Assembly: GCA_026396175.1 (NCBI GenBank)
Contig: JAPLXG010000008.1
Location: 659-64,658, forward strand
DNA length: 64,000 nucleotides
DNA from: Candidatus Moraniibacteriota bacterium
GTDB taxonomy: Bacteria > Patescibacteriota > Minisyncoccia > Moranbacterales > UBA2206
Reading direction: 5' to 3'
A program made the translations under genes and the position numbers. Below are positions 1 through 34,265 of this stretch, piece by piece. The notes beneath the pieces were generated by a model, which saw only the letters and a program-made list of their open reading frames with translations, had not been told where the DNA came from and did no database searches. Position 1 is the first letter of the stretch. Each line of letters begins with the position of its first letter.

Positions 1-771
1 AGGACACATCTTGATGATAAAATTCTTGCGGGAGGAAAAAGTCTCAGGGACATCGGCATAGGTATAAATGAAAAGGGTGAATTTGATGCAAGCCTCCTCG
101 GAGTAAGTGGCTGGAATGTAAACCAAGCTATAGAAAAAATTCTTAAAGCTTGTGGAGATACAGATGAAGAAATCAATAAATTCGTTCTTGATGTCGATGA
201 AATCAGCGGAGCCAATAAGAGTATCGGCTATGGAGGAATCATTGTTGACAAAAATGGTAAGCTCGTTAAAGCTAAAAATAAATGGCAACAAGCCCGGGCG
301 GCCATTGCAAAGCTCTCTACCGCTGGCGACACACAAGCCATTGCCAAAGAAACCCATCGTAATTATATTACTGGTGAGGGAATTGATCCTAGCACAGGCT
401 TCACCATTATTAATGCTGAGTTTGCCGAAATGGTAAGAGCAGGAATACCCGGCATTATAAAATCTCAAGTAAACCGTCATGCCCCAACTTTTTATCAGCA
501 AGTGGATAGTGAAGACACCCTCAAAGGCATGAGGTTTGAGCTTGATAGGCTCCGAGATGATCCTACGTATTTAAACTATTGGGATGACAATGCTGATGAT
601 GGAAAGGGTGGCAAGGGCGTGCTTGTTAATAAACGCATTACACCAGAACAGCATGAGCAAACTGCTCAATGGATAAGCGCCCAAGAAATTTATACAAAAA
701 CAGGGAAAGCAACAGCTGGGAAGCAGGCAGATCTTGATGAAATGAATAAGGCACTGCGTTCCACACCATAA
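1..771 (+). CDS. hypothetical protein, C-terminal part; gene starts upstream of the window
   Basis: Frame 1 has no stop from position 1 to the TAA at 769-771. The track ORF 430..771 is only the last Met-initiated part of this frame. No recognisable motifs. Confidence 0.5.
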   Translation, partial: RTHLDDKILAGGKSLRDIGIGINEKGEFDASLLGVSGWNVNQAIEKILKACGDTDEEINKFVLDVDEISGANKSIGYGGIIVDKNGKLVKAKNKWQQARAAIAKLSTAGDTQAIAKETHRNYITGEGIDPSTGFTIINAEFAEMVRAGIPGIIKSQVNRHAPTFYQQVDSEDTLKGMRFELDRLRDDPTYLNYWDDNADDGKGGKGVLVNKRITPEQHEQTAQWISAQEIYTKTGKATAGKQADLDEMNKALRSTP

Positions 772-869: not shown

Positions 870-2228
870 ATGAGCGAAAGAATCGAAAATTTAATTGACG
901 ATGCGAAAGATGCAATCGCCGAATATGATCCTGGTGAATCAAAAATTGTCCTAGAAAAAATAAAGGGATCATCTTTTGGTTATTCCAATTTTCCTGCTGA
1001 CCTACTCATTCAGCTACAACTCATAGCTTTTCAAAACATAGCTGAAGATGAAGCAATCTCTATTTTAAAAAATAACTGCTTGGAATCATTCCGATATGAC
1101 ATTGATTTAAGAGGTGGCATAACCGCGAGATTGTTTATCGAGCCCTATACGGTTCGCGATGAGTTGCGTAAAAAACTCAAAAAAGCGCTGATAGAAAATC
1201 AGCAAAAAATAGGCACAATGACGATTGGCGAATGGATTTCTGATTTCGAAGCAATGTTTGATGTCAAAACTCGCGAATTAACTGCCTCGGCAGAATTTAT
1301 TTCCAAACACCCCAAGGCAGTTTTTCTCGCCCCAAGTGAAAAAATTAAACTAAAAGAACTGCTCTATACCTATGATTATTTATTGGTTTCCACATTACCA
1401 GCAACCGGACAATCTCTAGAAAATCTTCTAGCTTCAGCTTCCAGCGGAATAAATTCCCCCTCCAATCTTCATTCTAATATAGCGCAGAGGAATGAGACAG
1501 AAAGAATACAAGGAATGAGAACGGAAAGTCTCCCCATAAGCATTGCTATGGAAAAATATCCTGAACTCGGCGAACAACTAATCACCTCATCGCACATCAA
1601 ACTAAAAGTCTTTCCTGAGCCGGTGCGACCATCGATCAAAAATTGGCTTTCTGACTACACTTTCACGGTGGGTGTCAGTAATCATGATCCAATTGTGCGC
1701 GGAAACTATTTGTTCAAGAGCGAAAATGGTCGCCCGCTTTCCACTGCTGACCGCGACAAATTAACCGCGATTCTCAAATCTTTTGAAGAAAAAACTCCGC
1801 TCGCCGTGAACACGAGCACCAAGCAAGTTGTTTTCATCGCGCAAGAAAGAAAAGACCTTCCGCAAAGACCGGCGATGAATTCAGGCGTCGCGCGCAATAA
1901 TTTTGATCCGGCAGAAATCAGAAGGGGACAAGAAAACAATCGTGAGCCACAAAGAACTTCAGCGCCACAGCAAAGATTTCAAACCGATGAGGAAAGAATT
2001 GCTGCTTGGCGAAGAGATTTGCCGCAAAAAGAAACGCTGGAAAACGGAAACGCCGCCGGAAATATTCATTTCTCTTCACCCCAAACATTCTCCACCGAAA
2101 AACCGGCTGAAGTTTCTCGCCCAACTCAAAACAATTATTCGCCCCCGCAAATTGCCAAAATAAATTATTCCACACCCCCAAGACCTTTGCCAAGAAATGT
2201 GGTAGACTTGAGGGAGGAGGAGAGATAA
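870..2228 (+). CDS. hypothetical protein with P/Q/N/R-rich low-complexity C-terminus
   Basis: 452-aa ORF in a dense coding context. The C-terminal ~130 aa are proline-rich and look disordered. No catalytic motifs seen. Confidence 0.45.
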   Translation: MSERIENLIDDAKDAIAEYDPGESKIVLEKIKGSSFGYSNFPADLLIQLQLIAFQNIAEDEAISILKNNCLESFRYDIDLRGGITARLFIEPYTVRDELRKKLKKALIENQQKIGTMTIGEWISDFEAMFDVKTRELTASAEFISKHPKAVFLAPSEKIKLKELLYTYDYLLVSTLPATGQSLENLLASASSGINSPSNLHSNIAQRNETERIQGMRTESLPISIAMEKYPELGEQLITSSHIKLKVFPEPVRPSIKNWLSDYTFTVGVSNHDPIVRGNYLFKSENGRPLSTADRDKLTAILKSFEEKTPLAVNTSTKQVVFIAQERKDLPQRPAMNSGVARNNFDPAEIRRGQENNREPQRTSAPQQRFQTDEERIAAWRRDLPQKETLENGNAAGNIHFSSPQTFSTEKPAEVSRPTQNNYSPPQIAKINYSTPPRPLPRNVVDLREEER

Positions 2229-2282: not shown

Positions 2283-2657
2283 ATGATAAAAGATCCTGAA
2301 AAGTATGATTTGGAACCGAGAACCCTAAGGTTTAGTGGAGGGGTGCTTGTTTTCATTAAGAAATTAAGCAAAGACATCATAAACACTCCGCTGATGAGCC
2401 AGCTAGTTCGCTCTGCGACTAGCATAGGCGCAAACTACTGTGAAGCTAATGGAGCAAGCTCAAAAAAAGATTTTCACAATAAAATATACATTTGCAAAAA
2501 GGAGTGCAAAGAAACAAAATACTGGCTAGAGCTACTCGCACAAGCAAACCCGGAACACAAAGAAGAAGGTAGAAAGCTCTGGAAAGAGGCTCAAGAACTA
2601 ACCTTGATATTTTCAAAAATAGCCCTAACATTAGAAGAAGACAAAAAAACCAAATAA
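2283..2657 (+). CDS. four-helix-bundle protein (23S rRNA intervening-sequence protein family)
   Basis: 124 aa. The motif 'IGANYCEANGASSKKDFHNKIYICKKECKETKYWLEL' is typical of this family. It is ~70% identical to the paralog at 42935..43306. Both are flanked by AT-rich repeats. Confidence 0.6.
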   Translation: MIKDPEKYDLEPRTLRFSGGVLVFIKKLSKDIINTPLMSQLVRSATSIGANYCEANGASSKKDFHNKIYICKKECKETKYWLELLAQANPEHKEEGRKLWKEAQELTLIFSKIALTLEEDKKTK

Positions 2658-2729: not shown

Positions 2730-3137
2730 ATGATATTCAACGTCCCCCAATTTATTGATATCGAAGACAAGCTCGTTGGGCCGCTGACGGCCAAGCAACT
2801 GGGCTGGTTGGCTTTGGGCGCTGTTGTGCTTTTGATACTTTACGGCCTTTTGGATAAATCCGCTTTTCTGCTTTCTGCTATCATTGTCGCCACAATTTCC
2901 GGAGCATTTGCTTTCTATAAACCCTACAACCAACCCCTGATCAAATTCATCACCTCCTCAATTCTGTTTGTCACCCGTCCCAAGATGTATATCTGGCGCC
3001 GTGTGCCGGAAAAAATTCAAAAAGCCAGCGCCAAAAAAGATACTGACACCAAAAAAACGACCCGAAAAACATTTGATGCCCAAAAAATAGCAGATATTTC
3101 GCAATTATTAGACATGAGAAACAATCAGAACCACTGA
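2730..3137 (+). CDS. PrgI-like small membrane protein (VirB3-like T4SS component)
   Basis: 135 aa. The N-terminus 'MIFNVPQFIDIEDKLVGPLTAKQLGWLALGAVVLLILYGL' followed by a second TM segment is the usual topology of PrgI-family proteins. It sits immediately upstream of VirB4. Confidence 0.45.
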   Translation: MIFNVPQFIDIEDKLVGPLTAKQLGWLALGAVVLLILYGLLDKSAFLLSAIIVATISGAFAFYKPYNQPLIKFITSSILFVTRPKMYIWRRVPEKIQKASAKKDTDTKKTTRKTFDAQKIADISQLLDMRNNQNH

Positions 3138-3210
3138 TTATCACGTGATTACATGCGATTTCACTGAAATATCCTCCTCTTCCTCCGGGAGAGCCTGCCT
3201 GCCGGTAGGC

Positions 3211-3236
3211 AGGCTTCTCCCTAATGGAGAAGGGGA
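3211..3236 (+). promoter_or_regulatory. SD-sequestering hairpin (CTTCTCCCTAATGGAGAAGG) ending 15 nt before the ATG at 3251
   Basis: The palindrome TTCTCCC-taat-GGAGAAG contains the only purine-rich SD-like element (GGAGAAGGGG) ahead of the start. The same motif precedes the genes at 6873 and 12403. Confidence 0.4.
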
Positions 3237-3250
3237 TATAAATAAAATTT

Positions 3251-3937
3251 ATGGAAAAACTATATTCTCAAAAACTCGCCAAACAAGCTGCGGCGTCACC
3301 GACGCAACAATATTTGGATGTGGCGGAAGTCAAAGAAGATGTGATTGTGCTTAAAAACGGATCGATCCGCGCGGTTTTAGCTGTTTCAGCGATTAACTTT
3401 GAGCTGAAATCGACTGATGAGCAAGAAGCAATCATCAGCCAATACCAAAATTTCTTGAACTCGGTGGATTTTCCTTTGCAAGTGCTCATCAGTTCGCGAA
3501 AGCTAAACATCAACACCTATTTGGATTTTCTCACCACCAAAGAAAAGCAACAAAAAACCGAGTTGATGCGTTTGCAAATTTCCGAGTATAAAAATTTCAT
3601 CACGCAATTAGTTTCGATGTCGGATATTATGGATAAAACGTTTTACCTGATTGTGCCATTTTCGCCGATTGAAAATCAAGAGAAAAGTTTTTTCAGTAAT
3701 TTTTCCAATATGATTAACCCCCAAAAGGGTATTTTAGAAAAAAGAGAAGCCTTTGAAACCTACAAAAGCCAGCTCTACCAAAGAGTCGACCACCTCACCG
3801 CCGGACTTTCCGGCATCGGCGTGAAAATCATCCCCTTAAAAACCCAAGAATTGATTGAGCTCCTCTTTAATGCCTATAACCCGACCATTTATGATACGAA
3901 GGGCTATATTGATACGGAGAAGATGGAACTTAAATGA
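3251..3937 (+). CDS. VirB4/TrbE-family conjugal-transfer ATPase, N-terminal fragment of a split gene
   Basis: 228 aa. 'VIVLKNGSIRAVLAVSAINFELKSTDEQEAIISQYQNFLNSVDFPLQV' matches the conserved N-terminal region of Gram-positive-type VirB4 (Tn916 Orf16 / TcpF / PrgJ-like). The ORF ends where the VirB4 middle domain would start. Confidence 0.55.
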   Translation: MEKLYSQKLAKQAAASPTQQYLDVAEVKEDVIVLKNGSIRAVLAVSAINFELKSTDEQEAIISQYQNFLNSVDFPLQVLISSRKLNINTYLDFLTTKEKQQKTELMRLQISEYKNFITQLVSMSDIMDKTFYLIVPFSPIENQEKSFFSNFSNMINPQKGILEKREAFETYKSQLYQRVDHLTAGLSGIGVKIIPLKTQELIELLFNAYNPTIYDTKGYIDTEKMELK

Positions 3938-4058
3938 AAATTTTCAATTTGAAATTTAAAATTTGAAATGAATTTTAAATGCTCAAATTAAATAATTTTA
4001 AATTTAGTAATTCAGATTTCATTTCAAATTTCTAATTTCAAATTTCTAATTTAAGAAG
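3938..4058. repeat. AT-rich repeat block separating the two VirB4 ORFs
   Basis: Contains 'aattttcaatttgaaatttaaaatttgaaatgaattttaaatgct'. The same ~45 nt occur in direct orientation at 5917-5962, after the second VirB4 ORF. Confidence 0.7.
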
Positions 4059-5909
4059 ATGCTAAATCTATTCGCCAAAAAAGATCCCGCCGATGTTGCT
4101 TCGGCAAAAAAACCCGCTCCAACAAAGCCCCAGGATGAGGTTTTGGAGTCGGAAAAATATTATCAGGAAGGCCTCGCCAAGCTCAACGATATTATCGCGC
4201 CGGCGGCCATTCAGATTATGCCCAAATCGATCCGCATCGGAGAAACGATTGCGCAGACGATTTTTATCATTGCCTATCCGCGCTATCTGCACAGCAATTG
4301 GTTTTCGCCGATCATAAACATTGATATGCCGATCGACATTTCGATGTTTATCCATCCAGTGGATACCTATGACATCTTGAAAACCCTCAAAAAAAGTGCC
4401 ACGCAAGTGGAATCGCAAATTCAAATCGAACAAGAAAAAGGGCTCATCAGAAATCCCTCGCTGGAAACGGCTCAGCAAGATATTGATGAACTCAGAGATA
4501 AATTGCAACAAGGCACAGAAAAATTCTTCCGTTTCGCGCTCTACATCACAGCTTACGGCGACTCCGAACAATCCGTCACCAAAAGCATCAAAAGCATCGA
4601 AGCAATTTTGGAAGCGCAATTGGTCTATGTCAAACCGGCGGTTTTCAAATCTGAACAAGGCTTCAATTCATCACTACCGCTGGCCAATGATGAACTCGAC
4701 GTGGGAACCAATATGAACAGCTCGCCCCTTTCCACAACTTTTCCCTTTGTTTCTTCCACCCTTTCATCCAACACCGGCATTCTCTACGGCATTAATCGCC
4801 ACAACAACAGTCTGATTATTTTTGACCGCTTCCAGATGGAAAATGCCAATATGGTAGTTTTTGCCAAGTCCGGTGCCGGAAAAAGTTACACCGTCAAATT
4901 GGAAGTTTTGCGTTCAATGATGGTCGGCACTGATGTGATCATCATTGATCCGGAAAATGAATACCGCCATCTTTGCGATACCGTTGAAGGCACTTTCATC
5001 AAAATTTCACTTAATTCTACAAACCATCTCAACCCATTTGATTTGCCGCGCGTCGGAGAAGAAGATGATCCGGAAGATATTTTACGCAACAACATCGCCA
5101 ACCTTTTGGGACTTTTGCACATTATGCTCGGTTCCATCACACCAGAAGAAGATTCAGTTTTGGATCGCGCCATTCACGAAACCTATTCAATCAAAGACAT
5201 TACCGCTGAGGTGGATTTTAATTCGCTCGGCAAAGATTCTTTTCCGACAATGTCTGATCTCTACCAAGTTTTGCGCAGTTTGGACGGGGGAGAAGTGTTG
5301 GCCGTTCGCTTAGAAAAATATACGGAAGGAATTTTCGCCGGCTTTCTCAACCATTCCACTAACATTAAAGTTGATAACCAATTAGTTGTTTTCAATATTC
5401 GCGATATGGAAGAGGAATTGCGACCAGTGGCGATGTATATGATTCTGCAATTCATCTGGAACGAAATGCGCACTAATGTCAAAAAGCGCATCGTGCTCGT
5501 CGATGAAGCCTGGGTGATGATGAAATATGAAGACGCCGCTTCTTTCCTGTTTGGTGTCGCCAAACGTTGCCGCAAATACTTCACCGGCCTCACCACCATC
5601 ACGCAAGATGTCAATGACTTTCTTTCTTCCCGCTATGGCAAAGCGATTGTCACAAATTCTTCTTTGCAACTACTCTTAAAACAATCTCCTGCCGGCATTG
5701 ATGTCATTTCCGACACATTCTATCTCACTGATCAAGAAAAATTCTTACTCCTCGAAAGCAACGTCGGCGAAGGCATTTTCTTTGCCGGCACCAATCATGT
5801 CGCCATCAAGGTGGTCGCGTCCTATTCTGAAGACCAAATCATCACCACCGATCCGTCGCAACTGCTAGACATTGAAAGGGCGAAGAAAGAATTTGCCGAG
5901 GAAGAATAA
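4059..5909 (+). CDS. virB4: VirB4/TrbE-family T4SS ATPase (middle + ATPase domains)
   Basis: 616 aa. Walker A 'SGAGKSYTVK' and Walker B 'IVLVDEAWVMM' are present. The N-terminal portion 'IAPAAIQIMPKSIRIGETIAQTIFIIAYPRYL' continues the VirB4 architecture begun in 3251..3937. Confidence 0.8.
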   Translation: MLNLFAKKDPADVASAKKPAPTKPQDEVLESEKYYQEGLAKLNDIIAPAAIQIMPKSIRIGETIAQTIFIIAYPRYLHSNWFSPIINIDMPIDISMFIHPVDTYDILKTLKKSATQVESQIQIEQEKGLIRNPSLETAQQDIDELRDKLQQGTEKFFRFALYITAYGDSEQSVTKSIKSIEAILEAQLVYVKPAVFKSEQGFNSSLPLANDELDVGTNMNSSPLSTTFPFVSSTLSSNTGILYGINRHNNSLIIFDRFQMENANMVVFAKSGAGKSYTVKLEVLRSMMVGTDVIIIDPENEYRHLCDTVEGTFIKISLNSTNHLNPFDLPRVGEEDDPEDILRNNIANLLGLLHIMLGSITPEEDSVLDRAIHETYSIKDITAEVDFNSLGKDSFPTMSDLYQVLRSLDGGEVLAVRLEKYTEGIFAGFLNHSTNIKVDNQLVVFNIRDMEEELRPVAMYMILQFIWNEMRTNVKKRIVLVDEAWVMMKYEDAASFLFGVAKRCRKYFTGLTTITQDVNDFLSSRYGKAIVTNSSLQLLLKQSPAGIDVISDTFYLTDQEKFLLLESNVGEGIFFAGTNHVAIKVVASYSEDQIITTDPSQLLDIERAKKEFAEEE

Positions 5910-6056
5910 GTGACATAATTTTCAATTTAAAATTTGAAATTTAAAATGAATTTTAAATGCTATAATTTTTAAAATTTAAATTTTTCTAGTTTGGATTTGA
6001 ATTAAAATTTTTTGCTTCAAGCTTATCCTTTGAGGGCAAATTTAAAATTAAGAGTT
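5910..6056. repeat. AT-rich repeat block plus the conserved 'ttgcttcaagcttatcctttgagggcaaattta' motif
   Basis: Direct copy of the 3941-3985 repeat. The 3' motif recurs at 43338-43375 (ttgctccaatcttatcctttgaggacaaattta). Confidence 0.65.
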
Positions 6057-6623
6057 ATGTCTCAAGAAGAAGAAAATCAAAAACGCTTAGAAGCGCAGAG
6101 AGAGGCTGATGAGGAAAACAACAGGGCACGAGAAACAAGTCAGCAAAAAAAGAGTCTGCGAAAATTAGCCAGCGAAATCGCTAGAGAAGCGGGAGTGACG
6201 GATACCGAGCATCTCCGGAAGTTTATCAGGCTCATAGATATTTTTTTTGCTGTTGCTATAATGACTTCTTTGCTGAAGGACATCTTTGATTTTCTCGGCA
6301 ATGCCATTCCCTATCTATACCTCATCTGTGTCGTTTTTGCTTTTATGGCGTCAATTGTCACCTGGGCAGCTATGCTTATTTGCGGAGCTGGCCTGCGTCA
6401 GCACAAAAGAAGATCGCTGATGAAAAGCATTTTTACCCGCAATAAATTAGCCATTCTATTCGCTGGTACTATTCTTGAAATACTCCCTATCCTAAATTTT
6501 TTTCCCATAGAAACAGTTACCACATTCGCTATTTTCATTTTAATTTTGAAAGAAAGAAGAGAAAGCGCCGCGGAAGAGGAAAGAGAAACTGCTCAACTGG
6601 CTAATGTTTATGCGCAAATTTAA
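6057..6623 (+). CDS. hypothetical membrane protein with charged N-terminus and 3-4 TM helices
   Basis: The start was moved to the internal ATG at 6057 (MSQEEENQ...), directly after the repeat motif; the upstream part of the track ORF lies inside the repeat. Hydrophobic segments FFAVAIMTSLL, YLYLICVVFAFMASIVTWAAMLIC and LAILFAGTILEILPI. Confidence 0.45.
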   Translation: MSQEEENQKRLEAQREADEENNRARETSQQKKSLRKLASEIAREAGVTDTEHLRKFIRLIDIFFAVAIMTSLLKDIFDFLGNAIPYLYLICVVFAFMASIVTWAAMLICGAGLRQHKRRSLMKSIFTRNKLAILFAGTILEILPILNFFPIETVTTFAIFILILKERRESAAEEERETAQLANVYAQI

Positions 6624-6625
6624 TT

Positions 6626-6866
6626 CCTCCTCGCCCTTAGGGAGAGCCCGCCTGCCGGTAGGCAGGGATGTCCGGAGGACAGGTGAGGCTACGGAATAGT
6701 TTTTTCAATACCTCTTCTCCCTTAGGGAGAGGATGTCCGTAGGACAGGTGAGGGAAGGGGCGTAGAAAAAAAGAAAACAATATTTAAATAGTGCCGGTTG
6801 ATTATTGAAAGGCTCTTCCCTCATCCGCCCTCCGGGCACCTTCTCCCTAAGGGAGAAGGGGATATA
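6626..6866. repeat. composite GC-rich hairpin element, copy a
   Basis: Contains the CCTGCCGGTAGGCAGG palindrome, two 'CTCTTCTCCCttaGGGAGAGGATGTC(N)GACAGGTGAGG' units and the 'ccctcatccgccctccgggcaccttctccctaagggagaagggga' module. Homologous copies lie at 12228-12402 and 59086-59312. Confidence 0.7.
6841..6866 (+). promoter_or_regulatory. SD-sequestering hairpin (TTCTCCCTAAGGGAGAAGG) 11 nt upstream of the ATG at 6873
   Basis: Same palindrome as at 3211 and 12367. GGAGAAGGGG lies in the 3' arm of the stem. Confidence 0.4.
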
Positions 6867-6872
6867 AACAAA

Positions 6873-7544
6873 ATGTACCCGAAATTAACCCCAAAAAATA
6901 AACAAACCTTTTTCAAGACCAATCAGGAGTTGCTGGTCGGTTTTGGCGTCGCGCTTGTTTGCCTTTTTTCCAGCTTTATTTTCCCCGCGCAAAATACCGC
7001 GCAAATTATCACGAGAAATTTATTTTTTCTCGTTCTTCTTCCGGCGGCATACATAAAAATAATCCTCGGAAAAGACCTGGCTGATTTTGGTTGGAATTTG
7101 GAAAATAAAAAAGTGGCTTTGCCTTGGAGTATCGGCACGACACTTTTTACCCTACTCATTTTCTATTTGATGTTAAATTATACCGGACTCAAAACCGGCT
7201 ATGTTTTGGCGAGTTACCTGAAAAATAGCTTTTGGCTATTCCTTGCCTATGAACTGCTTGCAATCAATTTTGTCGTTTTTGTTTTCAGTTATTTTTTTCA
7301 AGGCTTCATTCTTTCCCTTTTTCAAAAGGAGTTTAGCCACTTCGCCATTGCCCTCCAAACCGTGCTATTTGTCCTGGCCATTTTTCTCGCCAAAGCACTC
7401 GCCTGGCAAACCGCGCCTTTCATTTTGCTTTCCGTCACAGCCGGCTTTCTCGCCTGGAAAACCAGATCATTTTTTTATTCGTATTTTATGAGTATTTTTG
7501 CTATAATAATTTTGGACGCTTATATTATTTATCTTACTAAATGA
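6873..7544 (+). CDS. polytopic membrane protein (possible T4SS channel component), function unknown
   Basis: The start was set at 6873 (MYPKLTPKNK) after the hairpin; the track ORF start at 6798 reads through the repeat. About 6-7 hydrophobic helices. No CPBP or other catalytic motifs recognised. Confidence 0.45.
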   Translation: MYPKLTPKNKQTFFKTNQELLVGFGVALVCLFSSFIFPAQNTAQIITRNLFFLVLLPAAYIKIILGKDLADFGWNLENKKVALPWSIGTTLFTLLIFYLMLNYTGLKTGYVLASYLKNSFWLFLAYELLAINFVVFVFSYFFQGFILSLFQKEFSHFAIALQTVLFVLAIFLAKALAWQTAPFILLSVTAGFLAWKTRSFFYSYFMSIFAIIILDAYIIYLTK

Positions 7545-10444
7545 AAACGGGGCTTAAAAAAACAATAATCACTTTTTTGGTTATTATTAATATTTTTTCG
7601 CTGACCACACAGACAGCTCACGCCGATCTTTTGGGCGTTGCCTTGGGCAATCCAATGGCTCTTATGGATACCGTCATGAGCGCATTTGGTGTTAATAAGG
7701 ATGAAATTCAAAACATGATGCAGACGGTCAATGTCGCCAGGAAGAAGGTCACTCCTCCGACAGTTTCAATTACTTTTAATCCGACTAATCCCGTGCCCGG
7801 AGAAAAGGTAGCCGTTACCGCCGCGCCAACCTATTTTATGAATTCTCCTGAAAACCTCTACTATACCTGGTACCTAAAAAGTGCCAAATGTTTTGCCGCA
7901 AAGGACCTGGACTCAAATGGACATGAATATGGAGATGATTATAAAAAACAATACGCATCCCAAGAAGATTTTGACAAATGCGATCTTAATGGTGACGGCA
8001 AAGTTGACATTGAAGACTACAAAATTAAAGCCGCTCGCATTTTAGTTAACAATGATTTCGTCTGGCAATCTGCCGATTACTCCAAGGATACTGATAATGA
8101 CGGGTATACGGCAGTTTTTGGTGGTGATGACCAAAGAGGAAAAAGCGAACACTGCTTCATTCATGATGTTGCGAGTGGTGATGATCATGAGATAAAATGC
8201 GAAAAGCATCTCTTTCCCAACGCTCCCAGTGACAAAACCGGTGATGGAACTTTTGGTGCCAGCGAAGAACAATTTTGGCACACCAATCCAAATAATAATG
8301 ACACTGCCGGCACGGGTCGCACTGATGAAGCCAATGTCGCGGGACTAGGAGAAAATGTTTTTTCCCTTATCTACTCGGCCGGAGATAAGGTTGGTGTTGC
8401 TATAGAAGGCGTTTCTATCCAACCAACCCAGGAAAAGGATTCGTCCTATGAAACGATGTGGGCATTTACTAAAAATGAGTGCGGCAATAAAGACAACATT
8501 GGCGCTAGCACGGATAATTCCGGCTATCCAAAAACAACTGGCAATACAACCACGACCTATCCAAACACAAAAGCGGATCACAGCGTCACCCCTGGAACTC
8601 CTCCAACGCTCTACTCCGCCACGGATTATTTGACCACCGTCACAATAAAAACTGTCGAGGATATCGCTCCCGGCACAAGTCAAGTCAATGACAATGCTAC
8701 CATTAGAACGACGACGACGACCCATACTGTAGTAACTTATGTCGGCACGGACCCTGCCATCCTTGCAACCAATCCCATCTTAGATGAAATGACCACAAGC
8801 AATACTTGCTCGCAACTTGAGGCTGAAAATGGGGCTGTTTGTTCTGGAACGGATGAATACAAATCAATTAAAATGACTGCTATGGCTACGAATGACCTAA
8901 ATGATTGTCTCTATAACAATCTCATCACGCCAGCCGAAGGAGGAGGGACAAAGGAAAAATTAGATGTCGCCCTGAAATATTTACCGGAAAGTCCCACCAA
9001 TGATTCCAGTGACCCTCCCGCCGACTACAAAACGGGTGATCCCAAGGGAGATGGAGATCAAGTTTCTCTTGATGCAACCGTTGCTAATCCCAATAGCGCC
9101 TCCTATCTCAACTACACCTGGGAAGTTTATGCCAGCAACGAAATTAACCCCGATGATTGGGGAACAGCAATTTCCAAAGATAAATTAGATGGCGCAACGC
9201 AAATGTCCGGACTTGGTGTGAGCAATCTCAAGTTTAATCTCAACTTTAAATCAACCGATTTTCCGCCAGCTAACGTGCTACCAAAATACCTAAAGGTAAA
9301 AGTAACCGCCAAAGAAACGCTGGCTGAAGGGAGCGGAGAGAGAGAGGGCCACACTGATATCACTATCCCCATTTCTTCCTCAGAAGAAAGAATTAGAGTC
9401 TACACAGCGAAAGTCAATGCGGACAATATCAATTTCCCAGCCGAAAAGACTGACAAGGCCGGGCTAGCCGCCCAAGAGAGATGCTTATTTACCGATCCGA
9501 AAAGTAACGTGAAATCACCATCGGCTGTTTGTGAAGTAGCCAAAGATGAAATTATTGGCGTGGGCATTGACGACGGAACCGAAAGTGATCCCACCTACAC
9601 TGATTTTCTTTGGACCATCGACGGCGCAACGCAGGCTTGCCCAAATGACAGTTTTTCACTTTGCATTGACAAAGATGGTAAATCAACTGACCGCACTTAT
9701 TTTCCCATCCTCAAAGAACCCGGTGATCAATATGCGATCGAATTGTCTGCGCTCAATAAAAAAACCGGCGAACGAGTAGATTTGACGAGGATGTTCAAAG
9801 TTTCCACGCCGGAAGCCAAGATTGTGCCAAAAGAAAAAGATGCTTCGGATAAATATATTTGTCGCGGATTGCTTTTAGGACAATATCTAGATTTTTACGG
9901 CCAACCGCACGATGATCGCAGTGACACAAAATTTCAAGCCCTGACCGGAAATAATATCGAACTCTATCCGGTTTTTTCCGGAACAACCGCACCAACTAAA
10001 TTCGCTAATGCGACTGATTGCCCCTATGAGTGGACCGTTGATGGCCAAAATATAAATGCTGGAAACGCCACTACCTTTGGTTATAGCATCGACCTGAATG
10101 ATTCAGGAAAATTAATCCTACCCCCGAAAAATGCCGGAGAAAAATATGTTATTTCTTTTTCCGATGTCTTCACTCCCACCAACGCCACAAAACAAATGCT
10201 TAACAAATTTTGGAATATCACCTATAATCAGTTCTATGAAAAGAAATTGACGCACAACATTGAAATTGAAATGGTGGACACCACAATTGCCCAAAAAACT
10301 AATTCACCGGCAAAAATTTTCGCCACCGTTTCTTCCGGCATCCCGAGCTATTTCGCCTTTCTTTTCCGCATTGCCCTTGCCGGACTAGCCATCATCCTCG
10401 CCATAAAAATCATATTTTTCATTCTGCCCAAGAGAGAGTTATAA
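7541..10444 (+). CDS. large secreted surface protein with C-terminal membrane anchor and dockerin/EF-hand-like Ca-binding motifs
   Basis: 967 aa. N-terminal signal peptide (MKTGLKKTIITFLVIINIFSLTTQTAHA). 'DLNGDGKVDIEDYKI' resembles a dockerin-type Ca-binding loop. Thr/Asn/Asp-rich. C-terminal TM 'IALAGLAIILAIKIIFFIL'. Embedded in the pilus/T4SS-like cluster. Confidence 0.6.
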   Translation: MKTGLKKTIITFLVIINIFSLTTQTAHADLLGVALGNPMALMDTVMSAFGVNKDEIQNMMQTVNVARKKVTPPTVSITFNPTNPVPGEKVAVTAAPTYFMNSPENLYYTWYLKSAKCFAAKDLDSNGHEYGDDYKKQYASQEDFDKCDLNGDGKVDIEDYKIKAARILVNNDFVWQSADYSKDTDNDGYTAVFGGDDQRGKSEHCFIHDVASGDDHEIKCEKHLFPNAPSDKTGDGTFGASEEQFWHTNPNNNDTAGTGRTDEANVAGLGENVFSLIYSAGDKVGVAIEGVSIQPTQEKDSSYETMWAFTKNECGNKDNIGASTDNSGYPKTTGNTTTTYPNTKADHSVTPGTPPTLYSATDYLTTVTIKTVEDIAPGTSQVNDNATIRTTTTTHTVVTYVGTDPAILATNPILDEMTTSNTCSQLEAENGAVCSGTDEYKSIKMTAMATNDLNDCLYNNLITPAEGGGTKEKLDVALKYLPESPTNDSSDPPADYKTGDPKGDGDQVSLDATVANPNSASYLNYTWEVYASNEINPDDWGTAISKDKLDGATQMSGLGVSNLKFNLNFKSTDFPPANVLPKYLKVKVTAKETLAEGSGEREGHTDITIPISSSEERIRVYTAKVNADNINFPAEKTDKAGLAAQERCLFTDPKSNVKSPSAVCEVAKDEIIGVGIDDGTESDPTYTDFLWTIDGATQACPNDSFSLCIDKDGKSTDRTYFPILKEPGDQYAIELSALNKKTGERVDLTRMFKVSTPEAKIVPKEKDASDKYICRGLLLGQYLDFYGQPHDDRSDTKFQALTGNNIELYPVFSGTTAPTKFANATDCPYEWTVDGQNINAGNATTFGYSIDLNDSGKLILPPKNAGEKYVISFSDVFTPTNATKQMLNKFWNITYNQFYEKKLTHNIEIEMVDTTIAQKTNSPAKIFATVSSGIPSYFAFLFRIALAGLAIILAIKIIFFILPKREL

Positions 10445-10465
10445 AATTAGGATTTACGCGCTTGT

Positions 10466-10556
10466 GTTATTCGAGACATTAGGGTGCTTATTCGTAAATT
10501 AGAGTCGCTTTATTACGGCGACACTAATACTCGAATTTACACGCTAATGACCCAAA
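10466..10556. repeat. ~80-nt palindromic intergenic element, copy 1
   Basis: 'cattagggtgcttattcgtaaattagagtcgctttattacggcgacactaatactcgaatttacacgctaatgaccc'. The reverse complement occurs at 25322-25396. Confidence 0.65.
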
Positions 10557-10593
10557 TATGATTGAACCGTGTAAGTCCTGAGAATAAAAAAAT

Positions 10594-11679
10594 TTGATGA
10601 ATTTAAAACTAAAACAAAAAATTGTCCTAGCAATCCTTGCTTTTTTGCTGGTTTTTATTCCTTCGGTATCAAAAGCAACTAGCTGTAGTTGTGCCAATGG
10701 TAGCGTAGTTTATTATACTGGTGTAGGTGAGGCCGCTGATGTGTCCACTAGCGCAGACTGCGACCAGACCTGTGCCAACCGCGGTGCAAATCTTTATTTT
10801 TACAATGCGAGCACATTTCCTTCTAGCGTTACAAAAACACCAACCACCCCACCAGCAAACCCCACTGGCACATCTTCTCCGCAAACACCGGTAGCCTCAA
10901 ACGTCAAATATCCCTACACCCCCATGGAAGCAATTCCCGGGTTTCCCAAAACCGGATCGATGATAGACTACGTTTTGCAAATTTATCAATTTGGCCTCTG
11001 GACAATCGGAATCGCCGCCGTGTTTATGATTTCCATCGGCGCCTTTATGTATATCACCAGCGCCGGAAACACCAGCCAAATGGGCAAAGCCAAGGAGGTT
11101 ATTTTCGACGCCATTATCGGCGTCATCCTCGCCCTCACGTCCTATGTGCTGCTCAACACCATCAACCCCGCGCTTGTTCAGATTGGTGGTGGGGATTATA
11201 GTACCACTGGCGGAGGTGGAACTGGTGGCGGAGGTGGATCGGGTGGTGGAGGTGGAGGAGGTGGTAGCTGCACACCAGTAACCAGTGGCCCATGTTCAGT
11301 TGATCAATTAACTGGAAGTTGTTTTGACGGAATAGCCGATCTTTCAAAAATTTCATCTCTCTGTAATGCAGAAAGTGGCGGTGTTAATATTCCCAGTACT
11401 GTAGATATATGCACCGACAGAACAACCTACTTTTCATGCGGAGCGTTGCAAGTCAACCTAACCTGTGCATGCAAAGGAACGAATGCGTTCACTGGGGCAG
11501 AGCCGTCCACTGGTTGCGCAAATTCTAACTGCACAGGACCAGGAATAAATTATACGTCATGCACCAGTCAAACCTGCAGTGGCAGTGGAAACATAACGGC
11601 GGCCTGTAAGGCATACAAAGAACATTCGGGAAATAAATATGATACGTGGACAAAGAATAGCACCTGTGGTTTCTCATAA
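10594..11679 (+). CDS. VirB2/TrbC-like pilin with poly-Gly linker and Cys-rich C-terminal domain
   Basis: 361 aa. Signal peptide, then the two-helix pilin core 'AIPGFPKTGSMIDYVLQIYQFGLWTIGIAAVFMISIGAFMYITSAGNTSQMGKAKEVIFDAIIGVILALTSYVLLNTINPALV', then 'GGGGTGGGGGSGGGGGGGG', then ~150 aa containing about 16 Cys. Confidence 0.55.
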   Translation: MMNLKLKQKIVLAILAFLLVFIPSVSKATSCSCANGSVVYYTGVGEAADVSTSADCDQTCANRGANLYFYNASTFPSSVTKTPTTPPANPTGTSSPQTPVASNVKYPYTPMEAIPGFPKTGSMIDYVLQIYQFGLWTIGIAAVFMISIGAFMYITSAGNTSQMGKAKEVIFDAIIGVILALTSYVLLNTINPALVQIGGGDYSTTGGGGTGGGGGSGGGGGGGGSCTPVTSGPCSVDQLTGSCFDGIADLSKISSLCNAESGGVNIPSTVDICTDRTTYFSCGALQVNLTCACKGTNAFTGAEPSTGCANSNCTGPGINYTSCTSQTCSGSGNITAACKAYKEHSGNKYDTWTKNSTCGFS

Positions 11680-11700
11680 AATTATTTATAAATTTATCAT

Positions 11701-12219
11701 ATGAGCTCAAAAAAGAAACTTTTTATTAGTATCGCATTTTTATTAGTTCTTGCGCTGATATTAATATTTTGGTTTTCTAAAAAAAACACGTCGTCCTCCA
11801 GCGCCACTCAAACTACGAGCGTGAACGGCCTACCTATTATTCATGGAGAGAAGCCCGCTATCTCAATAAACACATTCGACATAACCACAAGAGATGGAAT
11901 AATTACAATTAATAATATCTATAAATTACCCGGCGTCATACTTTTGGATTTTGATGGGGTAAATTTCAAAAATTCTCAATACTACCACATGGAATATTAC
12001 CCAAAACAACAAGGTTTTATTATTGCCATACTTGACCCAGCTATCCAAAAAGCTAGAGAAATAGCAGAAAGTGACTTTCTTGAAGTGCTTAATATAACCC
12101 AGGATCAGGCTTGCAAACTCAATATATCGCTTACTGTGCCACCAAGCGTCAATGGACGGGCTAGCGGGGGAAATTACGGTCTCAGTTTTTGCCCCAATGG
12201 AAAAGCTTTTCCGAAATAA
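11701..12219 (+). CDS. hypothetical N-terminally anchored secreted protein
   Basis: 172 aa. TM/signal 'LFISIAFLLVLALILIFWF'. No recognisable domains. Confidence 0.4.
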   Translation: MSSKKKLFISIAFLLVLALILIFWFSKKNTSSSSATQTTSVNGLPIIHGEKPAISINTFDITTRDGIITINNIYKLPGVILLDFDGVNFKNSQYYHMEYYPKQQGFIIAILDPAIQKAREIAESDFLEVLNITQDQACKLNISLTVPPSVNGRASGGNYGLSFCPNGKAFPK

Positions 12220-12227
12220 CTAACCCG

Positions 12228-12402
12228 CATCTTCTCCCCCTCGGGAGAGGATGTCACGAGCACGTGACAGGTGAGGGCAAGGGCTATATTACTTGGGGAA
12301 CGCGTTATTATAGAGAGCCAATAAAATTTTTCAAAAGCCCTTTCCCTCATCCGCCCTCCGGGCACCTTCTCCCTAATGGAGAAGGGGATTCAAATTAAAC
12401 CT
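12228..12402. repeat. composite GC-rich hairpin element, copy b
   Basis: 'cttctccccctcgggagaggatgtcacgagcacgtgacaggtgaggg ... ccctcatccgccctccgggcaccttctccctaatggagaagggga'. Homologous to 6626-6866 and 59086-59312. Confidence 0.7.
12367..12392 (+). promoter_or_regulatory. SD-sequestering hairpin (CTTCTCCCTAATGGAGAAGG) upstream of the ATG at 12403
   Basis: Third occurrence of the same palindrome placed directly 5' of a start codon. Confidence 0.4.
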
Positions 12403-13320
12403 ATGCAAAAAACTCTAAAAAAAATAAATTTAAACAAAGCTGCTATTTTTTCTTTTTTTGTCTTTCTTTTTCTCTTTACTTTCAATAAAGCCAACGCCGC
12501 CGGTCTCGTTCCTTGCGGGCTGGGTGCCAGTGATCCCTGCACGCTTTGCCATTTTATCGTGGGAATTAAGGGTCTGATTGATTGGGGAATGAGCATCATC
12601 ATTGCCGTTTCCATCGCGGGAATTTCTATCGCCGGCGTACTCTATGTCCTTTCCTCTGGCAGTTCTACGCTCACCACCCAAGCCAAGGGCTTCATTACAA
12701 GCGTAGTAATCGGCTTTTCGCTCTTTCTTGGGGCATGGCTCATCATCAACACTACATTTTATTTACTTTCCGCCAAAAAAGACGATACCAGCGGCACCTA
12801 TAATCTTGGCCTCACAAGCAAAAGCTGGAATTCTTTTTCTTGCTCAACTACTAGCTCTACAATGGGAGTTTTACCTCCCACCACTGACGCAACCATAGCT
12901 GATTATAATTGCGACAAGCTCACCTTTCAAACATCTGCTGTAAAAAACCAATGCAATGATGCTTCTTCCGCTCTGCAAACAATGATTGTATGCATGAGAA
13001 ACAAGCTCGGCACCAAGATGACCATCAATTCCATTTCTGATAATAACGGGGGCGGCACCAAATGCTATCAAACTTATCCCAAGGGGCCGCAATGCGTCAA
13101 TGATGCGGACACTAACTGTTGCCACCATGCCGTAAGCTCATGTCATTACGGAGGGGTAAATGTAGGAAATTCCGAGGCAGTTGATATTTCCACTACCACA
13201 GGGCTAACTGTTGATAACATAATTACCGCCGCTAACGCATGCAACGCTGGATATACTAAAGATGAATCTGTCAACTATAATCACGTACACGTCAGTACCA
13301 CTAATTGTAGAAAAGATTAG
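12403..13320 (+). CDS. second VirB2/TrbC-like pilin with Cys-rich C-terminal domain
   Basis: The start was set at 12403 (MQKTLKK) after the hairpin. Signal peptide, then the pilin core 'GIKGLIDWGMSIIIAVSIAGISIAGVLYVLSSGSSTLTTQAKGFITSVVIGFSLFLGAWLIINTTFYLL', then a C-terminal region with about 13 Cys. Confidence 0.5.
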   Translation: MQKTLKKINLNKAAIFSFFVFLFLFTFNKANAAGLVPCGLGASDPCTLCHFIVGIKGLIDWGMSIIIAVSIAGISIAGVLYVLSSGSSTLTTQAKGFITSVVIGFSLFLGAWLIINTTFYLLSAKKDDTSGTYNLGLTSKSWNSFSCSTTSSTMGVLPPTTDATIADYNCDKLTFQTSAVKNQCNDASSALQTMIVCMRNKLGTKMTINSISDNNGGGTKCYQTYPKGPQCVNDADTNCCHHAVSSCHYGGVNVGNSEAVDISTTTGLTVDNIITAANACNAGYTKDESVNYNHVHVSTTNCRKD

Positions 13321-13381
13321 CTTTTCTATTCCACATCGCTACAAAAAAATCGGAGCTAAGCTCCGGATTCTCTCAATTTTT

Positions 13382-14530
13382 ATGTCCACCAGTAAAAAAA
13401 TCTTTTTAATCTCGCTCACTCTTTTTTGCGTTGCGCTTCTGTTTTTTGGCATCTATAATTTCGCTTTCAAAAAACCCACTGCAGTCACTCCGGTGGTGGA
13501 ACAAAAGGCACCGGCCGTTGTTACCCCACAAGTTGTGCCAAAAGTTAGCACTGACCCCATCGCCACCATCTCTGACGAAGCGGTACTCGCGCCGACACTA
13601 GTTAGTGGCACCAACGCCGTTAAATATTATTCCAGAAATAGCGGGCGAGTTTATCAGATTGATTTTGATGGCAACAGCAAGAGAACGCTCTCTGATAAAG
13701 AATTAATTGGCCTGAGTGCTGTGCTTTGGTCACCGGACAAAAATAAAGTAATCACAAAATTTGTGAGCGCCGGGACAACAAAATTCTATGCCTATGACTA
13801 TACTAGCCTACAAAGCACGCAGCTGAAAAACAATGTTGATGAAATTGCTTGGCAAAATACGGGTAATCGAATTTTCTATAAATATTATGACGCCGCTACC
13901 AAAAAAAGAACGCTGAACATTTCCGACCCTGATGGCACCAACTGGACAAAATTGGCGGACATTGATTTTCGCAATATTTCTATCGCGCAAATTCCCCAGA
14001 GTGGCCTCGTTTCTTTTTGGAATAAACCAGATGCTTTTTTTGAGACCACATTAAAATCCGTTCCGCTGATCGGAGGAGAAGAAAAGGTACTCCTAAAAGG
14101 CGTTTTTGGCGCGGATTATCTTTGGAATGCGAACGGAACGGCGGCACTCGTTAGCCACTCCGATGCCAAGGGTGGCACAAAAATCCAGCTTTCACTTATC
14201 AATTCTAACGGCGGAGAATTTAGAGATCTTAACTTGCCTTCATTTGCCTCTAAGTGCGCTTGGGCAAAAGACAATAGAACCATCTATTGCGCAATGCCCG
14301 GTGAAGTTCCCGCTTCCGCTATTTTGCCCAATGACTATGACCAAGAAAAATTTCATACTGCCGACACTTTTTGGAAGATTGACACCACCACCGGAGAAAA
14401 AAATCGTATTATCGATTTGAATAAAATCACCAATAAATATGATGCCACAGATCTTTTCCTCAATGCCGATGAAAGCATCTTGTTTTTCACTAACCGCACC
14501 GACGGAAAACTCTATCGCATAACTCTCTAA
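13382..14530 (+). CDS. secreted/anchored PD40 (TolB-like) beta-propeller repeat protein
   Basis: The start was set at the internal ATG 13382 (MSTSKKIFLISLTLFCVALLFFGIY), which is a TM anchor. 'WSPDKNKVITKF' and 'NRIFYKYYDAATKKRTLNISDPDGTNWTKL' are PD40-like blades. Confidence 0.45.
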   Translation: MSTSKKIFLISLTLFCVALLFFGIYNFAFKKPTAVTPVVEQKAPAVVTPQVVPKVSTDPIATISDEAVLAPTLVSGTNAVKYYSRNSGRVYQIDFDGNSKRTLSDKELIGLSAVLWSPDKNKVITKFVSAGTTKFYAYDYTSLQSTQLKNNVDEIAWQNTGNRIFYKYYDAATKKRTLNISDPDGTNWTKLADIDFRNISIAQIPQSGLVSFWNKPDAFFETTLKSVPLIGGEEKVLLKGVFGADYLWNANGTAALVSHSDAKGGTKIQLSLINSNGGEFRDLNLPSFASKCAWAKDNRTIYCAMPGEVPASAILPNDYDQEKFHTADTFWKIDTTTGEKNRIIDLNKITNKYDATDLFLNADESILFFTNRTDGKLYRITL

Positions 14531-14545
14531 AGCTAGCACCCCCTA

Positions 14546-14590
14546 GGCTCTAAGAGCCCGTAGCAACGGGCTCTTAGAGCCTGCTTTTTA
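14546..14590. terminator. bidirectional intrinsic terminator between convergent genes
   Basis: 15-bp perfect stem GGCTCTAAGAGCCCG-tagcaa-CGGGCTCTTAGAGCC, followed by a T-rich run. Confidence 0.7.
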
Positions 14591-15733
14591 TAACAAAACA
14601 AACAAAAGCCAAAACACAACTGTCAGATCGTTTTTGAAATAAGTCGTGTCAACTATTCCATGGAGTAAGATATAACCCATAATCCCCAGCCCGATGAATT
14701 TCAGCTGGGGATTTTTTTGTGAGCGAAAAATATGGGCAAACCAAAAATAAACCAGCGCCAGAAATCCAGCCAAGGAAAAAACTCCGCCATAGAGCCAAAA
14801 GGCTAGATAGAGACTATGCGGGTGCGGCACAGCCCATTCCAGATAGGGCGGAAAATATTTTTGATAGGCCAAATACTTTTCCTGAAAATTACCGGCGCCG
14901 ATCCCAAAAAGCGCATTATTTTCCAGCATCTTTTCAGCCGATTGCCAAATCATCATCCGCGAAGCCAAAGAAGATCGACTGTCAAAACTAACCAAAGATT
15001 GCAATTTGTTTTTTTCCAGCTGGGAAAAAAATAATATGACCAGTAAAAATAAACCTAGCAGGTATTTCTTCCAATTTATTTTTTTTCCTAACCTAAAAAC
15101 AAAACCAAAGACGAGTGCGACAGAAATCCAACTGGCATAGGAATAGGTCAAGCAGAGCGCGGCCAAGATGACCGCCAGAGAAGAAAAAACTAGCCCCTTT
15201 TTTCCCGTCTTGGTTTCGAAAAATAAAGCGTACCCGATAAAAATAGCCGGCGCCAGATACATCGCTAGATAATTGGGAGAGTTAAAAAATCCCTGCAGCC
15301 GCAAATCAAAAGTTACGTTTCCGTAGAAATAATAGCCAAGTGAAACCAGCGCTACAAAAAAGGCGGAGGCGTAGTAACTTAAAAAAACATTTTTGAGCTT
15401 CTTTTCTTCGATTACCTGACTAACAACAAAAGCAAGCGCCATTGGCAACAAAAACCAACTTTTAATTATACCGAGTCCTGTCGCATAATTTTTATTCACC
15501 AAAACTGAAACAATCAAACCAAGTAAAATAATGCCGGTGGAAAAAATAAATGGTTTATGTTTCTTAAAAAGCGCCCTATAATCAACTCCTTCTTGATAGA
15601 AAATCAACCACCCAATGACACAAGCTATAATTAGGATGTCTAACGCATTAATAAAACTAATCCGCCAAAGATAAACTGGCAGCGCAAAAATTGTCAGATA
15701 AATTAAATTTTCCAAGTTAACTATTTTTTTCAT
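14588..15733 (-). CDS. O-antigen ligase/polymerase-family (Wzy_C-like) membrane protein
   Basis: 381 aa, about 10 TM helices. 'ASRMMIWQSAEKMLENNALFGIGAGNF' resembles the periplasmic loop of O-antigen-ligase-domain proteins. Confidence 0.5.
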   Translation of the reverse strand: MKKIVNLENLIYLTIFALPVYLWRISFINALDILIIACVIGWLIFYQEGVDYRALFKKHKPFIFSTGIILLGLIVSVLVNKNYATGLGIIKSWFLLPMALAFVVSQVIEEKKLKNVFLSYYASAFFVALVSLGYYFYGNVTFDLRLQGFFNSPNYLAMYLAPAIFIGYALFFETKTGKKGLVFSSLAVILAALCLTYSYASWISVALVFGFVFRLGKKINWKKYLLGLFLLVILFFSQLEKNKLQSLVSFDSRSSLASRMMIWQSAEKMLENNALFGIGAGNFQEKYLAYQKYFPPYLEWAVPHPHSLYLAFWLYGGVFSLAGFLALVYFWFAHIFRSQKNPQLKFIGLGIMGYILLHGIVDTTYFKNDLTVVFWLLFVLL

Positions 15734-16979: not shown

Positions 16980-16982
16980 TTT

Positions 16983-20683: not shown

Positions 20684-20752
20684 CTGATTTAATTCGCCCA
20701 GTGTCCGCTACATCCCCCTAGTCTAGCGCTGACGCTTAGGTTTATTTAAAAT

Positions 20753-30902: not shown

Positions 30903-30931
30903 AGTAGTTTTAATAAATATAAATTTAGATT

Positions 30932-34263: not shown

Positions 34264-34265
34264 AA

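Follow-up and report, generated by a model that had tools for sequence, protein, structure and literature searches.

A chromosomal Patescibacteria-type type IV secretion locus with pilin-family proteins that carry predicted peptidoglycan hydrolase domains

A secretion gene block close to dnaA

The window analysed here, 64,000 nt of contig JAPLXG010000008.1 from Candidatus Moraniibacteriota, contains in its left part a block of plus-strand genes for a type IV secretion system (T4SS). It includes genes for a PrgI/VirB3-like protein (2730..3137), a TrsD-like protein of 228 amino acids (aa; 3251..3937) and a VirB4-family ATPase (4059..5909), followed by two polytopic membrane proteins, mem4 (188 aa, 6057..6623) and mem5 (223 aa, 6873..7544), and a 967-aa surface protein (7541..10444). 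Two pilin-family genes, pilin 1 (361 aa, 10594..11679) and pilin 2 (305 aa, 12403..13320), are separated by a single non-pilin gene, p172, encoding an N-terminally anchored extracytoplasmic protein of 172 aa (11701..12219). The last gene encodes an anchored PD40/TolB-like beta-propeller (13382..14530), and a strong intrinsic-terminator-like hairpin on the same strand (14544..14583; an 18-bp stem and a T run) ends the block. Gene starts were corrected to 6057, 6873, 12403 and 13382. A first-pass annotation of the sequence had named these genes, and the list of open reading frames (ORFs) together with family scans confirms them all on the plus strand; the TrsD-like gene and an upstream block had been omitted. 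Homology and gene order show the cluster to be a chromosomal T4SS of the Patescibacteria type, related to the conjugation machinery of monoderms (MPF-FATA class), and both of its pilin-family proteins are predicted to end in a peptidoglycan-hydrolase-like domain.

The cluster lies about 8 kb from yidC, jag, dnaA and dnaN, which occupy 20.2-25.3 kb, with dnaA at 22491. Read from left to right, GC skew turns from negative to positive at ~22-24 kb, and the origin is therefore placed near dnaA. With that origin, replication would meet the T4SS block head-on, its genes being on the lagging strand, in contrast to the minus-strand neighbours at 14588-21538. Pfam scans of the 50 largest ORFs, which are essentially every non-shadow ORF of at least 120 aa, found no relaxase, VirD4/type IV coupling protein (T4CP), VirB11 or integrase within these 64 kb, in agreement with the first-pass annotation as to the first three. 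The sole related ATPase in the window is a PilB-type T2SSE protein (43385-46405, minus strand). At 1006 aa, with two T2SSE stretches and an MshEN-like N-domain, it is unusually long and may be a duplication or fusion.

PrgI, TrsD and VirB4

The PrgI-like protein has two transmembrane (TM) segments and matches Pfam PrgI above the cutoff (E=1.3e-9, 38.9 bits, cutoff 27), as had been proposed, and also TcpE (1.2e-4). VirB4 matches the NCBIfam CD1110 family (E=1.6e-112, 377 bits, cutoff 325) over model positions 181-734 of 752, along with the Pfam TraG P-loop domain (2e-30), and has both a Walker A (SGAGKS) and a Walker B (VLVDEA) motif. The TrsD-like protein matches NCBIfam TrsD (1.2e-6) and residues 2-119 of CD1110-type VirB4, all of its TrsD and VirB4 N-domain matches being below the curated cutoffs. 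Judged by these matches, the TrsD-like gene is a free-standing homologue of the VirB4 N-terminal domain, and VirB4 itself lacks the N-terminal ~180 residues, which TrsD would supply. A frameshift or pseudogene as the origin of this split was considered and rejected, since the TrsD plus VirB4 arrangement is kept in 79 of 80 related loci.

These 80 loci are those of the best VirB4 relatives, compared by tblastn and iterated hidden Markov models (HMMs); many lie on incomplete contigs, so that the gene counts given here and below are lower bounds. All come from Patescibacteria metagenome-assembled genomes (MAGs) by name, or from mislabelled binned MAGs. The window VirB4 shares 94-95% identity with proteins of Candidatus Moranbacteria/Moraniibacteriota MAGs, the next relatives being from other Patescibacteria, and one 83.8-kb Moranbacteria MAG contig encodes identical copies of pilin 2 and the 967-aa protein, annotated as hypothetical. 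The first-pass annotation had called for a synteny check in other Patescibacteria, and this bore out a PrgI-TrsD-VirB4 core, with PrgI in 77 loci and TrsD in 79. The PD40 protein is found in 57, pilin-domain genes in 38-39, mem4 in 30, mem5 in 26 and the 967-aa protein in 23. In ~20-27 loci the whole order up452-PrgI-TrsD-VirB4-mem4-mem5-967-pilin-(172)-pilin-PD40 is maintained, where up452 is a gene left of PrgI described below.

Pilin-family proteins with hydrolase-like C-terminal domains

Pilin 1 and pilin 2 are each predicted to have a signal peptide and two TM segments. As for VirB2/TrbC-type pilins, there is a signal peptide and a two-helix hydrophobic hairpin; the small size typical of such pilins is not seen (361 and 305 aa). 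The earlier description of two unusual pilins thus holds for the hairpin, but the hairpin is fused to a hydrolase-like domain in both proteins. Because the signal peptide is followed by two TM segments, both C-terminal domains are predicted to lie outside the cell.

In pilin 1 the signal peptide is followed by a Cys-rich and Pro/Thr-rich stretch, the two-TM hairpin, a Gly-rich linker and an SLT_3-type domain at about residues 225-361. Pfam T4SS_pilin matches 20 of the 23 full-length homologues and SLT_3 (PF18896) matches 9 of the 23 (best 4.2e-9). For the window protein, the C-domain has no direct SLT_3 Pfam match; it can be aligned over its full length with P0106 (1e-15) and P0113 (1e-11), both annotated as SLT_3. 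The homologue alignment has invariant E259-S260, G262, D270 and S280-x-G282-x-x-Q285-x-N287. With its conserved Glu-Ser and GLxQ-type motif, the domain is assigned to the SLT_3 lysozyme-like type. A search of the PDB with the family profile returned Cys-biased RNase A matches only, which we judged spurious.

The C-domain of pilin 2 matches no Pfam or NCBIfam model. The protein has 89 database homologues, many with PF18895 (T4SS_pilin), and some homologues of the pilins also carry NlpC/P60 or SLT domains. In an alignment of 40 sequences, S246, C247, H248, G250, G251, D261 and H296 are invariant, and H242 and H294 nearly so. Against the PDB, the C-domain profile matched Hedgehog N-terminal domains only (E ~0.015), with the zinc ligands aligned; phmmer searches of each single pilin against PDB sequences gave nothing, or Gly-linker matches only. 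Based on the PF18895 homologues, the invariant residues and the Hedgehog profile match with its aligned zinc ligands, we read pilin 2 as a fusion of the hairpin to a peptidoglycan-peptidase-like domain of the LAS (Hedgehog/DD-peptidase) fold, which shows both the His-Asp-His zinc triad and the HxH motif and is probably zinc-dependent. This LAS-like domain has 174 cluster representatives among 1.84 billion proteins, nearly always at the C-terminus of proteins of 270-450 aa, and 128 of the best 150 representatives also carry the pilin hairpin.

The fusions are not peculiar to this genome. Among the related loci, 38 contain a total of 57 pilin-domain ORFs, of which 51 are at least 200 aa and the longest reaches 586. 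Local LAS or SLT_3 HMMs match 16 of the 57, and scans of another 34 found SLT in five, VanY in five and Peptidase_M15 in two. About half of the pilin-family genes in related loci thus appear to carry hydrolase-like domains, making fusion a common feature of the predicted proteins.

Membrane and surface proteins of the block

Mem4 has a charged N-terminus and ~4 TM segments, and neither its orthologue set in Pfam nor a PDB profile search gave a match. Mem5, with ~6-7 TM segments, is CPBP/Rce1-like (Abi-fold): 14 of 24 orthologues match Pfam Rce1-like (best 5.2e-8), and the family profile has no match in the PDB. Measured against the CPBP motifs EExxxR, FxxxH and HxxxN/D, the family has no conserved His; the window copy reads SYFFQG where the family has ExFFRG, and has therefore lost the Glu and Arg of motif 1. 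Because the motif histidines are not conserved and the window copy lacks these two residues, mem5 is probably a CPBP/Rce1 fold homologue and not a protease. It resembles CPBP/Rce1-like (Abi) proteins in being polytopic, in its orthologues' Rce1-like matches and in being encoded beside wall hydrolases, and it differs from the proteases among them in the missing motif-2 and motif-3 histidines. Non-catalytic CPBP members include SpdC/LyrA of S. aureus, a partner of the hydrolase SagB.

The 967-aa protein begins with an N-terminal signal-like helix and ends in a C-terminal TM segment (residues 944-962), so that the signal peptide and anchor ascribed to it earlier are both borne out. Its dockerin-like character is another matter: one family-conserved DxNxDGxVD loop and other acidic loops are present, but Pfam Dockerin gave no match at E up to 0.1, and the paired 22-residue Ca-binding repeats of a dockerin are not reproduced. 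A conserved N-domain with acidic loops is followed by a chain of beta-sandwich domains that are immunoglobulin-like (Ig-like).

The true p172 family is limited to ~7 Moranbacteria loci. A VirB8-like identity for p172 was not adopted, an iterated HMM having conflated p172 with another family, whose members come after VirB4 in distant loci. In more distant Patescibacteria, an N-terminally anchored protein of ~190 aa is encoded directly after VirB4 (L030:11911-12465, L034:11932-12483, L028:11879-12433 and similar), with conserved motifs RFGSWS ... TQR ... YYQ ... WLVD..W. It is possibly NTF2/VirB8-like and is absent from the Moranbacteria version of the locus.

For the last gene, whose product has an N-terminal anchor, the PD40/TolB-like propeller assignment is valid at the family level, where 12 of 34 orthologues match Pfam PD40 and the family profile finds propellers down to 1.7e-15 and TolB at 8e-6.

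The block extends upstream

The first-pass annotation had described a compact locus starting at 2730. The conserved block begins left of the window, because two genes, which we call u750 and up452, are kept upstream of PrgI in relatives. Of u750, the window holds the C-terminal 256 codons (1..771, plus strand); the frame is open from base 1 and the start lies further left. Full-length orthologues are ~750 aa with ~8 TM segments and a large hydrophilic C-domain, and u750 sits upstream of up452 in 44 of the 80 loci. By architecture only, u750 is a candidate extended VirB6 like that of Gram-positive systems; a tblastn search of its membrane domain against plasmids gave no match. The up452 gene (870..2228, plus strand) encodes a conserved soluble protein of 452 aa with no TM segment, and neither Pfam (window copy and orthologue set) nor a PDB profile search gave a match. 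It was found in 31 loci by tblastn and in up to 70 of 80 by iterated HMM, and adjoins PrgI in relatives. A search for the DNA left of the window matched only Logan contigs of 1.2-3.8 kb. In Moranbacteria, ksgA and genes for two secreted or anchored proteins come before u750. One of the two is a ~370-aa secreted protein (L001:3202-4314) with thrombospondin-type-3-like DxDxDG repeats and the other a ~350-aa anchored protein; this pair, found in 16-17 loci of Moranbacteria, could be part of the same system.

Between up452 and PrgI in the window is inserted a plus-strand gene of the 23S rRNA-intervening-sequence-protein family (2283..2657; Pfam 23S_rRNA_IVP E=8.7e-18). It is found in only 7 of the 80 loci and is outside the conserved set. 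Flanked by AT-rich repeats and breaking the up452-PrgI junction, it looks like a mobile small gene; a second member of the family lies at 42935-43306 on the minus strand. The AT-rich repeats have a period of ~6 nt (AAATTTGAAATTT...) and occur at 2228-2258, 2678-2730, 3938-4056, 5916-5983 and 20066-20211. They partly make inverted repeats, are alike in the same spacers of relatives L002, L004 and L005, and could be promoter, terminator or curved-DNA elements.

A GC-rich repeat in three spacers

Three spacers of the block, of 113, 249 and 183 nt, are occupied by GC-rich multi-hairpin elements on the plus strand: copy 1 at 3138..3250, copies 2a and 2b at 6624..6872 and copy 3 at 12220..12402. Their terminal hairpins (3214-3237, 6840-6863 and 12366-12389) are formed by the 24-nt motif CTTCTCCCTAATGGAGAAGGGGAT, which occurs exactly three times in the window, at 3214, 6840 and 12366, where none is expected. 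The motif is the 3' module of elements with inverted-repeat ends. The first-pass annotation had noticed the shared hairpin before three genes, which stands as three exact copies, and had taken it for a device that sequesters the Shine-Dalgarno (SD) sequence, which does not. What speaks for translational control of three T4SS genes by SD masking is that start codons follow the three near-identical copies at 9-13 nt (13, 9 and 13 nt to the next ATG), that the 3' arm of the stem contains GGAG, and that the folding energies of the local hairpins are -10 to -16 kcal/mol. However, none of the 80 related loci has the motif, not even those with 95% VirB4 identity, in which the spacers are much shorter; those matching in the closest relative, L002, are a few bases, 16 nt and at most ~70 nt. 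The exact 25-mer (the motif and one 5' base) is found in 43 metagenome stretches beside unrelated housekeeping genes, where only 19 of 44 copies lie within 30 nt of a start codon, at varying distances. In addition, the short hairpins have ordinary z-scores (-0.6 to -2.4), the unpaired GGGGA is 11-15 nt away from the ATG, a long distance for an SD, and the inverted-repeat ends are like those of the elements named next. The GC-rich element is a dispersed repeat of the repetitive extragenic palindromic (REP) or miniature inverted-repeat transposable element (MITE) kind, not a T4SS regulator. Since it is absent from the 80 loci and adjoins unrelated genes elsewhere, it is not a T4SS-specific SD switch, and SD masking is in our judgement very unlikely. 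As for the repeat itself, its hairpins are genuine; the family ends in CCTTCTCCCTAAKGGAGAAGGGGAT and is dispersed in several metagenomes (L081-L123), where the hairpin preceding the motif varies compensatorily between copies. It may be a REP-/MITE-like element of Moranbacteria-type genomes.

Other genes in the window

A surface-polysaccharide cluster (two Wzy_C genes, two GT2 genes and a flippase) lies on the opposite strand, and further genes in the window are of a housekeeping kind: PBP1, ruvABC, the PilB-type ATPase, ispG, holA, fpg and polA. Four ATP-grasp (RimK-like) genes at 29949-35064 (minus strand), the last also with a Zn_protease domain, adjoin a 7TM_transglut membrane protein. A protein of 669 aa that combines three lamin-tail domains with a PKD domain (37964-39973, minus strand) is probably another surface protein, and an AbiEi/AbiEii toxin-antitoxin pair (57019-58264, minus strand) sits between two TrmB-family regulator genes. 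Three of the scanned ORFs, of 113, 446 and 144 aa, had no Pfam match; the 446-aa one lies just past dnaN (25871-27211, plus strand). Rfam and tRNA scans of the window gave no match.

Comparison with known systems

The VirB4 clade of Patescibacteria has been related to MPF-FATA, with TrsD as the most abundant VirB4 companion, along with PrgI (Quinonero-Coronel et al. 2025, PMC12102498). In that survey VirB2-like pilins were found via PF18895 in arrays that are tandem or one gene apart, relaxases were nearly absent, and the loci lay in proximity to dnaA/dnaN and ksgA (PMC12102498). The present cluster agrees in its MPF-FATA-like VirB4 with adjacent TrsD and PrgI/VirB3, in its chromosomal position near dnaA/dnaN, in PF18895-type pilin genes one non-pilin gene apart and in having no relaxase or T4CP nearby, within the 64-kb window. 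It differs in that both pilin genes are predicted hydrolase fusions (SLT_3-like and LAS-like), in having a CPBP-like protein, the 967-aa Ig-like protein and a TolB-like propeller in the conserved block, and in the lack of a recognisable VirB6 or VirB8. The Saccharibacteria T4SS, pilins included, is essential (Southlakia epibionticum SEML1_0006-0019; Wang et al. 2023, PMC10633639), and reviews call the function of the T4SS unknown (PMC11665869, "completely unknown"; PMC12857230). Hydrolase-fused pilins are not mentioned in these four papers on Patescibacteria T4SSs (PMC12102498, PMC10633639, PMC11665869, PMC12857230), relative to which they alone are new; the cluster itself is a further member of a published class.

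Gram-positive conjugative T4SSs (pCF10 Prg/Pcf, pIP501 Tra, ICEBs1 Con and the Tn916/CTn2 CD1110 type) share the VirB4 family and a PrgI/TcpE-like partner, and likewise pair glycosidase and peptidase wall hydrolases (PrgK, TraG, CwlT). They are mobile, with relaxase, T4CP and oriT, and have no pilins, whereas here pilin hairpins with fused hydrolases are found at a fixed chromosomal locus. Compared with VirB2/TraA pilins (T-pilus, F-pilus, archaeal Ced/Ted), the proteins here are 305-361 aa with enzyme-like C-domains of ~140 aa. Classical VirB2/TraA pilins are small, and we know of none with a catalytic domain. Set beside the LAS metallopeptidases (MEROPS M15: Streptomyces Zn DD-peptidase, VanY/VanX, phage Ply500; and the Hedgehog N-domain), the C-domain of pilin 2 has no model match and is Cys-rich, and its SxHxxG and AxD motifs are set apart by a 6-residue insertion; unlike known LAS metallopeptidases, this LAS-like domain is found almost only fused to a pilin hairpin.

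Possible function

Taken together, we consider it likely that the cluster is a chromosomal, non-conjugative Patescibacteria-type T4SS with hairpin-hydrolase "pilins", driven by VirB4 and TrsD and cutting the wall locally. In such a machine PrgI would dock VirB4/TrsD to the membrane, and VirB4/TrsD would supply the energy to extract the pilin-hairpin proteins or to assemble them into an envelope-spanning or surface structure. Peptidoglycan could then be cut locally by the tethered glycosidase and peptidase, in the cell's own wall for machine assembly (the VirB1 role), and the wall of an attached host cell may also be a target. The Ig-like protein and the propeller might make or stabilise contact, or serve as a scaffold.

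Several points weigh against this interpretation. The hydrolase activity is a prediction from sequence, and any filament or substrate is hypothetical. Pilin 1 itself matches Pfam T4SS_pilin at E=8.5e-4, under the cutoff, and pilin 2 itself has no match to that model, so that the putative T4SS_pilin membership of both comes from orthologues and local HMMs; the SLT_3 assignment found no PDB support in the family profile search. No VirB6 or VirB8 homologue was demonstrated among mem4, mem5, up452, p172 and u750. A VirB6 profile check of the polytopic proteins, which the first-pass annotation had suggested, gave no similarity: neither mem4 nor mem5 has a VirB6 signal in Pfam searches of orthologues or in PDB profiles, mem5 being CPBP/Rce1-like instead. 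For u750 there is no sequence link to VirB6, a PDB profile search giving coiled-coil noise only. Finally, VirD4-like genes lie far from virB4 in many Patescibacteria (PMC12102498), and the window covers 64 kb only, so that a distant T4CP or relaxase is conceivable.

It is possible, though we give it well under even chances, that the pilin hairpins are mere membrane anchors and that the proteins are VirB1-type "space-making" hydrolases of the cell's own wall, with no pilus at all. Gram-positive T4SSs require hydrolases of two activities (PrgK, TraG of pIP501, CwlT; PMC12102498), a glycosidase-like and a peptidase-like domain are both encoded in the cluster, and the proteins are three to four times as large as a VirB2 pilin. 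Against this, the hairpin is specifically of the T4SS_pilin family and is retained in most proteins with the LAS-like domain, as counted above. In Saccharibacteria the pilin arrays are moreover divergent in sequence and essential (PMC10633639, PMC12857230). Long linkers, rich in Gly or Thr, would permit display on a filament. The bolder proposal is that the hairpins polymerise into a VirB4-driven, enzymatically armed pilus, each subunit bearing a lysozyme-like or a Zn-peptidase-like domain, that drills host peptidoglycan for episymbiont attachment and feeding, which we regard as speculative and unlikely.

Somewhat more doubtful still is an import machine of the ComB/Ced-like kind, taking up DNA or other host macromolecules as nutrients. 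Import has been proposed for Saccharibacteria (PMC11665869), wall-cutting enzymes would aid access to host contents, and VirB4 weakly matches the NCBIfam archaeal DNA-import ATPase CedB (3.8e-13). That score is far below the cutoff, however, and reflects generic VirB4 similarity; no DNA-binding or channel component was identified in the cluster, and the genes do not indicate a direction of transport.

We infer that the cluster is not a self-transfer module; the first-pass annotation had likewise thought a classical conjugation module unlikely, from the lack of conjugation genes. A classical conjugation module or integrative and conjugative element with relaxase and coupling protein beyond the window, which the conjugative (CD1110-type) family of the VirB4, the limited length of the window and the frequent distance of VirD4-like genes from virB4 might favour, is highly improbable, because the cluster adjoins oriC among core genes with position and synteny stable across many species (Moranbacteria among them), integrase, relaxase and T4CP are all missing from the window, the 7-8 kb further upstream, as seen in five relatives, contain ksgA and membrane or secreted proteins with no Walker-A ORF, and relaxases are reported in only 103 Patescibacteria genomes (PMC12102498).

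Because the cluster belongs to a T4SS class described in 2023-2025, of which the locus as such is an unexceptional representative, the general idea of it is already known. The fusions urge caution: pilin arrays alone are not proof of a pilus. An armed pilus, if true, would explain both the divergent "pilin" arrays and the seeming lack of VirB1 in Patescibacteria. More generally, the prediction that many T4SS "pilins" are tethered wall hydrolases offers a testable lead, either to wall cutting between symbiont and host or to a VirB1 function that has been fused to the pilin hairpin.

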